From contig CM030332.1 in assembly GCA_017654855.1 (NCBI GenBank), positions 6,634,001 to 6,698,000 of the forward strand: a stretch of DNA of 64,000 nt, read 5' to 3'. The DNA is from Podospora anserina. Taxonomy: Eukaryota. The notes under the pieces were generated by a model, which saw only the letters and a program-made list of their open reading frames with translations, did not search any database and had not been told where the DNA came from. Position 1 is the first letter of the stretch. Every line of letters starts with the position of its first letter. A program made the position numbers and the translations under genes. Positions 28,603-29,990 of this stretch are shown piece after piece.

Positions 28603-28854
28603 TCAAATCCGCCCAATCCCCCCGCGTCCATTCTTCTTATGTCCAAAAGGTCCGCTACCGCCCCTACTATCCTTCCCCTCATCCCAGTGAGTGGGAATGC
28701 CGTCGTCATCTCCAAGCCAGTCATCACCCCCATCGTCATCACCTCCATTCCCAGGCCAACCAGGGAAGCCACCATTGCCCCCATCATCATCACCGCCATC
28801 ATCATCCCCACCAGGATTCCCATCATCACCACCGTCAGATCCAGAGTCGGATAG
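28603..28854 (-). other. In-frame 83-codon Gly/Asp-rich extension behind the lectin TGA-CTA stop (candidate read-through region)
   Basis: TGA CTA TCC GAC TCT GGA... reads LSDSGSDGGDDGNPGGDDDGGDDDGGNGGFPGWPGNGGDDDGGDDWLGDDDGIPTHWDEGKDSRGGSGPFGHKKNGRGGIGRI* with no internal stop. Confidence 0.65.
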
Positions 28855-29990
28855 TCAACTGTTCCCTGCGGTCAAGCAGACACCACCATCGACGTCCCAT
28901 GCATCAACACCTCCACTCTTGGCAGTCAAAGTCGCAGCGAAGACGTTGATCTCCTGGGTGGTCTCCTTGACCGGCTCGTAATGCAGGAGGTAAAACAAAA
29001 CGACAACATCAGGACTGCCCTTGACAATGATGGAGGCAAGAGAAGACCCCGGGATAGGGTTGTTGGCCAGCACAACCGGCTGCGGCTGGGTCACGGCGCC
29101 AGATGCATCGACTTTGAGCCGGAAGATCTGGTTTTGGAGGTCGGTCGTGTAGAAAGCCCAGAAGTTGGATTTGTCATCGACGGCGGTAATGGCTGAGTGA
29201 GCGGAGAGGGTGATGGTTTTATCGTTGATGGAGTAGGTTGCGTAGTCTGTGAGCAGGATGTTAGAAGAAATAGGGTATGTACAGAAGCTAACAGAGTCAG
29301 GGGCAAAAGTGGGGACTGACCGTTGGGTCCTTGATCTTGGGAGGAACCAAGTTCGAGTTTGTCATACTGGAAGAAGACGACCGGGTCGTCTGTGTCGGTG
29401 GGGTTGTTGTAGCGGATGACTTCGATTCCTGGCTGAGGGGGCACGGCAGTGAGGGCTGTGCCGACGAGAGGGGGGTCATCCAGGGGCGGGTTGCCAGTCT
29501 GCCATTTGTAGGTAGGGCTGTGGTTGACTAGGACGATGTTGCCTGTGTCCGATGTGTCCTGGTAGTACAGGCAGACGAAGTCGTAGCCTCCGTGGTTGAC
29601 AAGGCGGACAGCGGCGAGCTTGGAGTAAGGGGCGCACTGCCATCTCTGGTCGTAAAGCTCGCCTTCAACCCACTTGGTTCCGTTGAAGTATATGTCGCGG
29701 AGGTAGTTTTGCTTGTCGACGAAGAAGACGAGGCGTTTGGCGTTGTAGTAGATGGATTTGGAGTTGATGGCAGCGAGGGGAGTGAAGCGCTTGGCGGGAG
29801 CGCTGCCGGACTCTTTGGTGAGGCCTATGCCTGTTTGGTCGCCAGTGACTTCGTAGGTTGCGGGATTGCCAGCGAGCTTTCCCTTGATTTCAACAAGCTC
29901 GCCGTTGTAGGTTTGGGCGTAAGTGAAGATCTCGCCTGCATCGTTGACGCAGGCTGCGAGAGCAGTGTTTGGGAGGAAGTTGAAGGACAT
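28855..29990 (-). CDS. Fungal fucose-specific lectin-like beta-propeller protein (353 aa), 1 intron, no signal peptide
   Basis: Repeated blade motifs NTALAAC, FTPLAAI, RLVFFVDKQNYLRDIYFNGTKWVEGEL, YSKLAAV, CLYYQD, GTALTAV, GSSLASI. Intron 29247-29320 (GTCAGT..CTAAC..CAG) joins in frame to the 28855..29094 ORF. Confidence 0.8.

Follow-up and report, generated by a model that had tools for sequence, protein, structure and literature searches.

The lectin gene PODANS_1_18020 of Podospora anserina ends with the stop codon TGA, which is directly followed by CTA and by a long in-frame sequence rich in glycine and aspartate codons. A sequence-only reading of this locus had proposed that the stop codon is read through in a programmed manner, resulting in two isoforms of 353 and 437 amino acids. 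This raises the question whether the open frame encodes a C-terminal extension which is maintained by selection, or whether it is a part of the 3'UTR that is open for other reasons.

Gene model, family and stop codon of the lectin

All coordinates refer to the window, i.e. the whole stretch of 64,000 nt of P. anserina DNA that was analysed. The gene and the sequence behind it comprise the following features:

29321..29990, minus strand: exon 1 of the lectin gene, start codon ATG at 29990-29988, 223 codons plus 1 nt, matching PF07938 on its own
29247..29320, minus strand: intron of the lectin gene, 74 nt, GTCAGT...CTAAC (branch site)...CAG, present as a joint in the RNA-like contigs
28858..29246, minus strand: exon 2 of the lectin gene, encoding the last propeller blades and the C-terminus ...VCLTAGNS
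28857-28855, minus strand: lectin stop codon TGA, as annotated, with the same letters in 4 of 4 runs and at a position common to eight of nine close orthologues
28852..28854, minus strand: CTA triplet after the stop codon, context TGA CTA T, reading TAG on the plus strand
28606..28854, minus strand: open in-frame tail of 83 codons (249 nt) with GGN/GAY periodicity, belonging to no Pfam family and most likely 3'UTR
28603..28605, minus strand: next in-frame TGA, which closes the open tail

The coding sequence consists of two exons on the minus strand with 1059 nt, corresponding to 353 codons, and the spliced product of 353 amino acids is identical to P0010, the protein of P. anserina S mat+ with the designation PODANS_1_18020 (name taken from the source record). 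The positions given in the sequence-only reading proved to be exact: TGA at 28857-28855, the CTA triplet, 83 open codons ending with KKNGRGGIGRI, and product lengths of 353 and 437 amino acids (353+1+83 = 437).

The assignment to the fucose lectins was likewise borne out. P0010 matched the Pfam profile PF07938 with 40.5 bits (cut-off 25.3; residues 15-308), and exon 1 alone yielded 35.2 bits (E=1.2e-8). A profile generated from P0010 and 12 relatives detected the chains of the Aleuria aurantia lectin AAL (1iub, E=1.8e-12; 1ofz, 2.7e-12) and of FleA (4agi, 3.6e-6) in the PDB, with matches that were partial in length. Judged by these profile matches, the gene is a member of the fungal fucose-lectin family. 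Gene and stop codon are already annotated, and the annotation is conventional. No paper on PODANS_1_18020 (Pa_1_18020) or on a fucose-specific lectin of Podospora was found in titles and abstracts, supplementary tables being outside this search.

Contigs of three RNA-like runs (X1, X3 and X8; their RNA origin was guessed) and of one DNA-like run (X17) were compared with the window over positions 28000-30300. The joint 29246|29321, which skips exactly the 74-nt intron, occurred in all three RNA-like runs and was missing from X17. This confirms the gene model and shows that the contigs concerned derive from spliced RNA. The TGA at 28857-28855 was read without any alternative letter in all four runs and is thus not an assembly error. 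No letter change, no insertion or deletion and no further joint was detected at the stop codon or in the tail in the contigs of the four runs, from which rare variants are dropped. The RNA-like contigs continued from exon 2 into the tail without a joint, and there is no abundant isoform that is spliced around the stop codon. As contigs, these runs are uninformative with regard to transcript ends, strand, level and rare variants.

Two observations were made beside these. The only difference from the window between 28000 and 30300 was located at position 28167 in the coding region of the neighbouring gene, where the window has C and all four runs have T; either the strains differ here or the record is in error. 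In run X3, minor-variant contigs of 60 nt were present within 28918-29008, with a depth that reaches about 1-4% of the main one (2.42 vs 207; 7.07 vs 173.8). Their centres, close to 28947 and 28979, fall in the lectin coding sequence, and these contigs could represent errors, heterogeneity or low-level editing.

Downstream, the lectin gene faces a convergent gene:

25114..28476, plus strand: convergent neighbour gene with the stop codon at 28474-28476, a single ORF of over 1100 codons without interruption

Its stop codon lies 379 nt from the annotated lectin stop and 127 nt from the tail stop, and because of the latter distance the 3'UTRs of both genes probably overlap. In this ORF, FAD_binding_4/BBE occurs together with a phosphomevalonate-kinase-like and a phosphoribosyltransferase domain, an unusual type of fusion.

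Composition, openness and codon choice of the tail

Glycine (29) and aspartate (20) account for 59% of the 83 tail residues, and no Pfam domain was detected in the tail. Lys and Arg are confined to its last 25 residues, the preceding stretch of approximately 58 residues being free of both. Aspartate is encoded by GAT (14) and GAC (6), glycine by GGT (9), GGG (9), GGA (6) and GGC (5). The sequence-only reading had pointed out that the repeat units vary mostly at third positions, as would be expected for translated sequence. As a description this is true, but in part it follows from the definition of the frame. Tandem Repeats Finder reported only a 15-nt unit with 1.9 copies, so the sequence is periodic without being a clean microsatellite. 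The motif GGTGATGATGGNGG was found with up to two mismatches 17 times in the window (2.18 expected), and eight of these 17 matches are situated inside the tail; a dispersed family of this motif was not detected within the 64-kb window.

The openness of the tail is explained by this periodicity. All 18 internal stop triplets of the region sit in one single frame, since the 3-nt periodicity of GGT/GAT type places them there, and ORFs of 83-122 codons overlap the tail in five of the six frames (98 and 83 codons on the minus strand; 110, 122 and 96 codons on the plus strand). Opposite the tail, at 28581-28949 of the plus strand, the 122-codon ORF is His-rich and another one is Pro/Ser-rich; both mirror the same periodic repeat on the opposite strand, and there is no indication that these plus-strand ORFs are genes. 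In dinucleotide-preserving shuffles (n=5000), an open frame of this length occurred in about 1% of the cases. This value was not accepted as an indicator of coding potential, because shuffling destroys the 3-nt periodicity. The base rate within the window is more instructive: among 73 stop-to-stop ORFs of at least 150 codons, four are followed by at least 83 open in-frame codons and one is followed by TGA-CTA. These rates are crude, as they stem from the 64-kb window only and many of the 73 ORFs are not terminal exons. Taken roughly, they let expect about ten such genes per genome by chance, as an order of magnitude. The open frame as such therefore argues only weakly for coding.

With regard to codon usage, two measures gave opposite impressions. 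The log-odds of in-frame versus off-frame codons amounted to 0.331 bits/codon in the tail, exceeding the median of real coding windows (0.281) as well as each of the 134 off-frame windows. This value falls into the coding range because the tail is composed of Gly and Asp codons of the RNY type (GGN/GAY). The synonymous choice, in contrast, resembles that of non-coding DNA. GC3 was 0.42 in the tail vs 0.71 in the coding sequence, and the ratio of C to T at third positions was 17:41 vs 197:58 (Fisher p=1e-11). The same was seen for asparagine (AAT:AAC 4:0 in the tail vs 1:22 in the coding sequence) and isoleucine (ATT:ATC 3:0 vs 2:13). A synonymous choice as poor as that of the tail occurred in 1.5% of the 83-codon windows taken from long ORFs of the window.

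Stop position and tail in related species

At 90% identity, the cluster of relatives includes nine full-length proteins, which belong to the Podospora complex, Triangularia, Apiosordaria and Cercophora samala. Eight of these proteins, 353-357 amino acids in length, share their last aligned position. The more distant named orthologues, among them those of P. australis, Cercophora scortea and Bombardia bombarda, end 1-5 residues past the conserved ...CLT/LLT strand (4/4), and the same distance to the last conserved strand was found for the four full-length library representatives that were fetched (4/4). In total, 16 of 18 full-length relatives end at the position of the lectin stop, the exceptions being P0014 and P0009; the fragments P0006-8, P0018, P0019, P0021, P0022, P0024 and P0028 as well as P0027 are left out of this count. 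By these alignments, the stop position is ancestral. In P0009 (Madurella fahalii, 1001 amino acids) the lectin is annotated as a fusion with a tyrosinase (PF07938 + PF00264 + PF18132), and the fragment P0019 extends beyond the lectin C-terminus into unrelated sequence.

For the detection of tail homologues, exon 2 and the tail (with TGA taken as W) were used as phmmer query against 1.84 billion representatives. None of the 11 matches aligned past query residue 130, the tail being represented by residues 131-213. In addition, 14 metagenomic loci encoding relatives were inspected, of which 12 had a readable C-terminus with the stop codons TAA (5), TGA (4) and TAG (3). In none of these 12 loci was the stop followed as in TGA-CTA or by a Gly/Asp extension; the in-frame extensions comprised 6-60 codons with a share of Gly and Asp of at most 0.17, compared to 0.59 in the tail. 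Among the named orthologues the 3' flank was visible only in P. bellae-mahoneyi, and the other DNA flanks compared are those of distant metagenomic loci.

In P. bellae-mahoneyi (P0014, annotated with 449 amino acids), a serine codon (TCA) replaces the stop, and the protein is extended by 95 residues corresponding to window positions 28857-28566. The first 25 codons of this extension follow the tail frame with two replacements; about 59 codons in a neighbouring, Met/Val-rich frame come next. The exit from the tail frame was located in a homopolymer:

28778..28782, minus strand: run of five G at which P0014 leaves the tail frame, with an inferred deletion of 1 nt

P0014 re-enters the tail frame only past the tail stop, by a second 1-nt change at about 28601-28599. 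The frame shift is seen in one assembly and lies within this G5 homopolymer; the assembly of P. bellae-mahoneyi was generated from MinION reads and polished with Racon and five rounds of Pilon, according to the accessible text of PMC10936905. The extension of P0014 may represent a natural stop-loss allele, or else it results from an artefact of assembly or annotation. Going by this record, neither the stop codon nor the Gly/Asp frame is preserved in the P. bellae-mahoneyi lineage. Since all outgroups carry the stop, the sense codon in this species would be derived and not ancestral.

The conservation of TGA-CTA and of the open tail in orthologues, which the sequence-only reading had named as a check, was thus not observed: it is missing from all 11 library matches and from all 12 metagenomic loci, and the frame is lost in P. 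bellae-mahoneyi. As signs against read-through the same reading had named a sense codon in orthologues and an unconserved tail. With the tail missing from the relatives examined and a sense codon in the sister species, largely this is what was found.

Polymorphism across the tail

Variation within the tail was accessible by way of an overlapping ORF:

28575..28871, minus strand: ORF of 98 codons in the neighbouring frame, called on Logan contigs and used only as a window on polymorphism

Substitutions were inferred from five Logan ORFs (P0018 and P0029-32, the latter forming one cluster of four) and from the frame-shifted part of P0014. Five of six visible events affected third positions of the tail frame (28729, 28726, 28687, 28669 and 28660) and are synonymous in this frame, and the remaining one (28820) affected a second position and causes a replacement. 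The bias of 5:1 towards third positions is not significant (binomial p=0.11), and first-position changes are mostly invisible by the neighbouring-frame route. The ratio hints at a possible constraint on the tail. The haplotypes of the neighbouring frame contained no insertions or deletions, but with their near-identity to the window they have little power in this respect. The comparison with P0014 pointed in the direction opposite to constraint, as two replacements occurred in 25 tail codons vs six in the 353 codons of the coding sequence (Fisher p=0.09).

Context of the stop codon

Published reporter experiments showed that UGA followed by CU(A) is sufficient for read-through in Ustilago maydis and HeLa cells, and that a G at position +4 or downstream structure increases this read-through (PMC4207609, as far as its accessible text goes). 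The lectin stop matches this motif, and the sequence-only reading was right in regarding TGA-CTA as a leaky context. The stimulating elements described there were not found: the base at +4 behind the lectin stop context is T instead of G, and folding of the 127 nt that surround and follow the stop did not show a stimulatory RNA structure (z=+1.52; equalled or surpassed in 190 of 200 shuffles). The C-terminal residues GRI had been judged at best a weak PTS1, and indeed they are outside the PTS1 pattern printed in PMC4207609. Insertion of selenocysteine at the UGA was ruled out as well, since fungi are described in the accessible text of the same paper as being without the required machinery.

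Evaluation of the alternative explanations

It is most likely, with a probability of roughly 70%, that the lectin terminates conventionally at TGA 28857-28855 and that the tail is low-complexity sequence of the 3'UTR, open by chance behind a stop codon of the leaky type. The 249 nt after the stop would then be a 3'UTR of degenerate, 3-nt-periodic sequence of GGT/GAT type, in which the periodicity confines the stop triplets to one frame, so that an in-frame "tail" may arise without being selected coding sequence. By analogy to the reporter work in other species, TGA-CTA would probably allow read-through at a low rate and give rise to little 437-aa product. Low-level, unprogrammed read-through is likely on these grounds. 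This leak appears to be a by-product and not a programmed isoform, because the tail frame is lost in the sister species and absent from the other relatives examined, and because its synonymous codons are like those of non-coding DNA.

Three further explanations deal with the stop codon itself, and all of them are far less probable. A recent nonsense mutation or a sequencing error, which truncates an ancestrally longer protein, had been named as the alternative in the sequence-only reading, and the sense codon and the annotated 449 amino acids of P. bellae-mahoneyi would fit it. However, the stop is shared by eight of nine close orthologues and by all outgroups, for which reason a recent nonsense mutation was rejected; all four runs read TGA, and the solved members of the family, with 297-355 amino acids, are without such a tail. 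With an ancestral stop and uniform reads, this explanation can practically be dismissed. Editing of A to I in the sexual stage would convert UGA to UGG and produce the long form only in fruiting bodies, and editing with loss of stop codons is indeed widespread in Sordariomycetes (PMC4817773 and PMC11156358, in their accessible parts). The preferred context, with U at -1 and UAG or UAA as stop codon, is not that of the lectin, though. Here the target A is preceded by G and followed by C, whereas U is found at -1 in 85.74% of the editing sites of Fusarium graminearum, G in 4.98%, and C at +1 in 6.93%, and GAC belongs to the rarely edited triplets in this fungus. Among the 503 edited stops reported in the accessible text of PMC4817773, the source of all these values, 323 are UAG>UGG, 175 UAA>UGA and five UAA>UAG, and UGA>UGG does not occur. 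The position of the A in a GAC triplet makes editing unlikely, and together with the distribution of the edited stops it strongly disfavours the recoding route mentioned in the sequence-only reading, for which hardly more than a slight chance is left. The corresponding change from T to C (plus strand) at 28855 was absent from all three RNA-like runs, which is weak evidence, as rare variants are lost from contigs and the runs may stem from any stage. Finally, splicing of an alternative intron could take out the stop and fuse the tail to the lectin frame. The sequence at the stop contains a weak GTTGAC/CTGAC arrangement that might serve this purpose, but it has no acceptor nearby, and nothing else was found in its favour. 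The 74-nt intron was the sole joint in the three RNA-like runs, and their contigs are unbroken through the tail, although rare isoforms would be missed in this way; such an intron is about as improbable as the nonsense mutation.

More weight has to be given to read-through that is selected in the P. anserina species complex, so that a fixed fraction of the lectin would carry an acidic, disordered Gly/Asp tail with consequences for assembly, ion binding or localisation. The TGA-CTA context, the 83 open codons with their coding-like RNY periodicity (0.331 bits/codon), the five of six polymorphic events that are synonymous in the tail frame, and the first 25 tail codons that are still recognisable in P. 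bellae-mahoneyi are in agreement with it. Against it, the tail is absent from all relatives examined (0/11 and 0/12), its frame is lost in P. bellae-mahoneyi with 2/25 replacements in the tail vs 6/353 in the coding sequence (p=0.09), the synonymous usage is like that of non-coding DNA, and five of six frames are open over the tail. Furthermore, T instead of G is present at +4, no downstream RNA structure was detected, GRI does not fit the PTS1 pattern in the accessible text of PMC4207609, and about ten such genes per genome are to be expected by chance (rough, from 4/73 and 1/73). Of the two-isoform claim of the sequence-only reading, the leaky context and the lengths of the products have stood; the assumption of a programmed isoform has not, as the tail is unconserved, its frame is not kept and its codon choice is not that of coding sequence. 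Read-through under selection is accordingly regarded as rather improbable. Equally doubtful is a functional tail as such, which is kept alive by the weak, third-position-biased polymorphism. The same low probability is assigned to a repeat of the 3'UTR that is turning into coding sequence behind the leakiest stop context known in eukaryotes. In this case, an acidic, disordered tail under selection would already be carried by a few per cent of the lectin molecules, and P. bellae-mahoneyi would have fixed the stop-loss and thereby made the extension constitutive.

If selected read-through nevertheless turned out to be true, the tail would represent a long, non-peroxisomal read-through extension of a fungal lectin, from which the birth of C-terminal extensions could usefully be studied. 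As the evidence stands, the locus illustrates that recoding can be mimicked by a stop codon of leaky appearance with a 3-nt-periodic repeat beside it. One open frame together with third-position variation is insufficient alone, and it is the conservation of the frame across species and the usage of synonymous codons that discriminate. With its annotated stop-loss allele, P. bellae-mahoneyi offers a small natural experiment.

Comparison with known systems

The core of the lectin resembles the AAL family (AAL, AFL/FleA and AOL; PF07938), as it matches the profile of this family as well as the AAL chains; the match to the solved six-bladed propeller lectins covers only about 125 residues. The solved members have a length of 297-355 amino acids and none of them possesses an acidic tail, unlike the open frame behind the stop codon in Podospora.

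Fungal and animal genes with the UGA CU(A) motif, which encode peroxisomal isoforms of Tpi1, MDH1 and LDHB (PMC4207609, PMC4359377), share with the lectin the identical TGA CTA and an open extension in frame. Their extensions are short, are kept in orthologues and terminate with a PTS1, whereas the lectin tail comprises 83 low-complexity codons, ends in GRI, is unconserved and has T at +4. The editing of stop codons in Fusarium, Neurospora and Sordaria concerns the same class of fungi and would also extend the C-terminus; the known events are of the type UAG>UGG with U at -1, as far as described in the accessible text of PMC4817773, whereas the A of the lectin stop is part of the rarely edited GAC triplet.

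With trinucleotide-periodic low-complexity sequences of UTRs, the tail has in common the 3-nt periodicity that opens several frames, the degenerate units, and third positions which are rich in T and G and unlike those of coding DNA. It differs from them in being more degenerate than a typical microsatellite and in its location exactly in frame behind a leaky stop codon.
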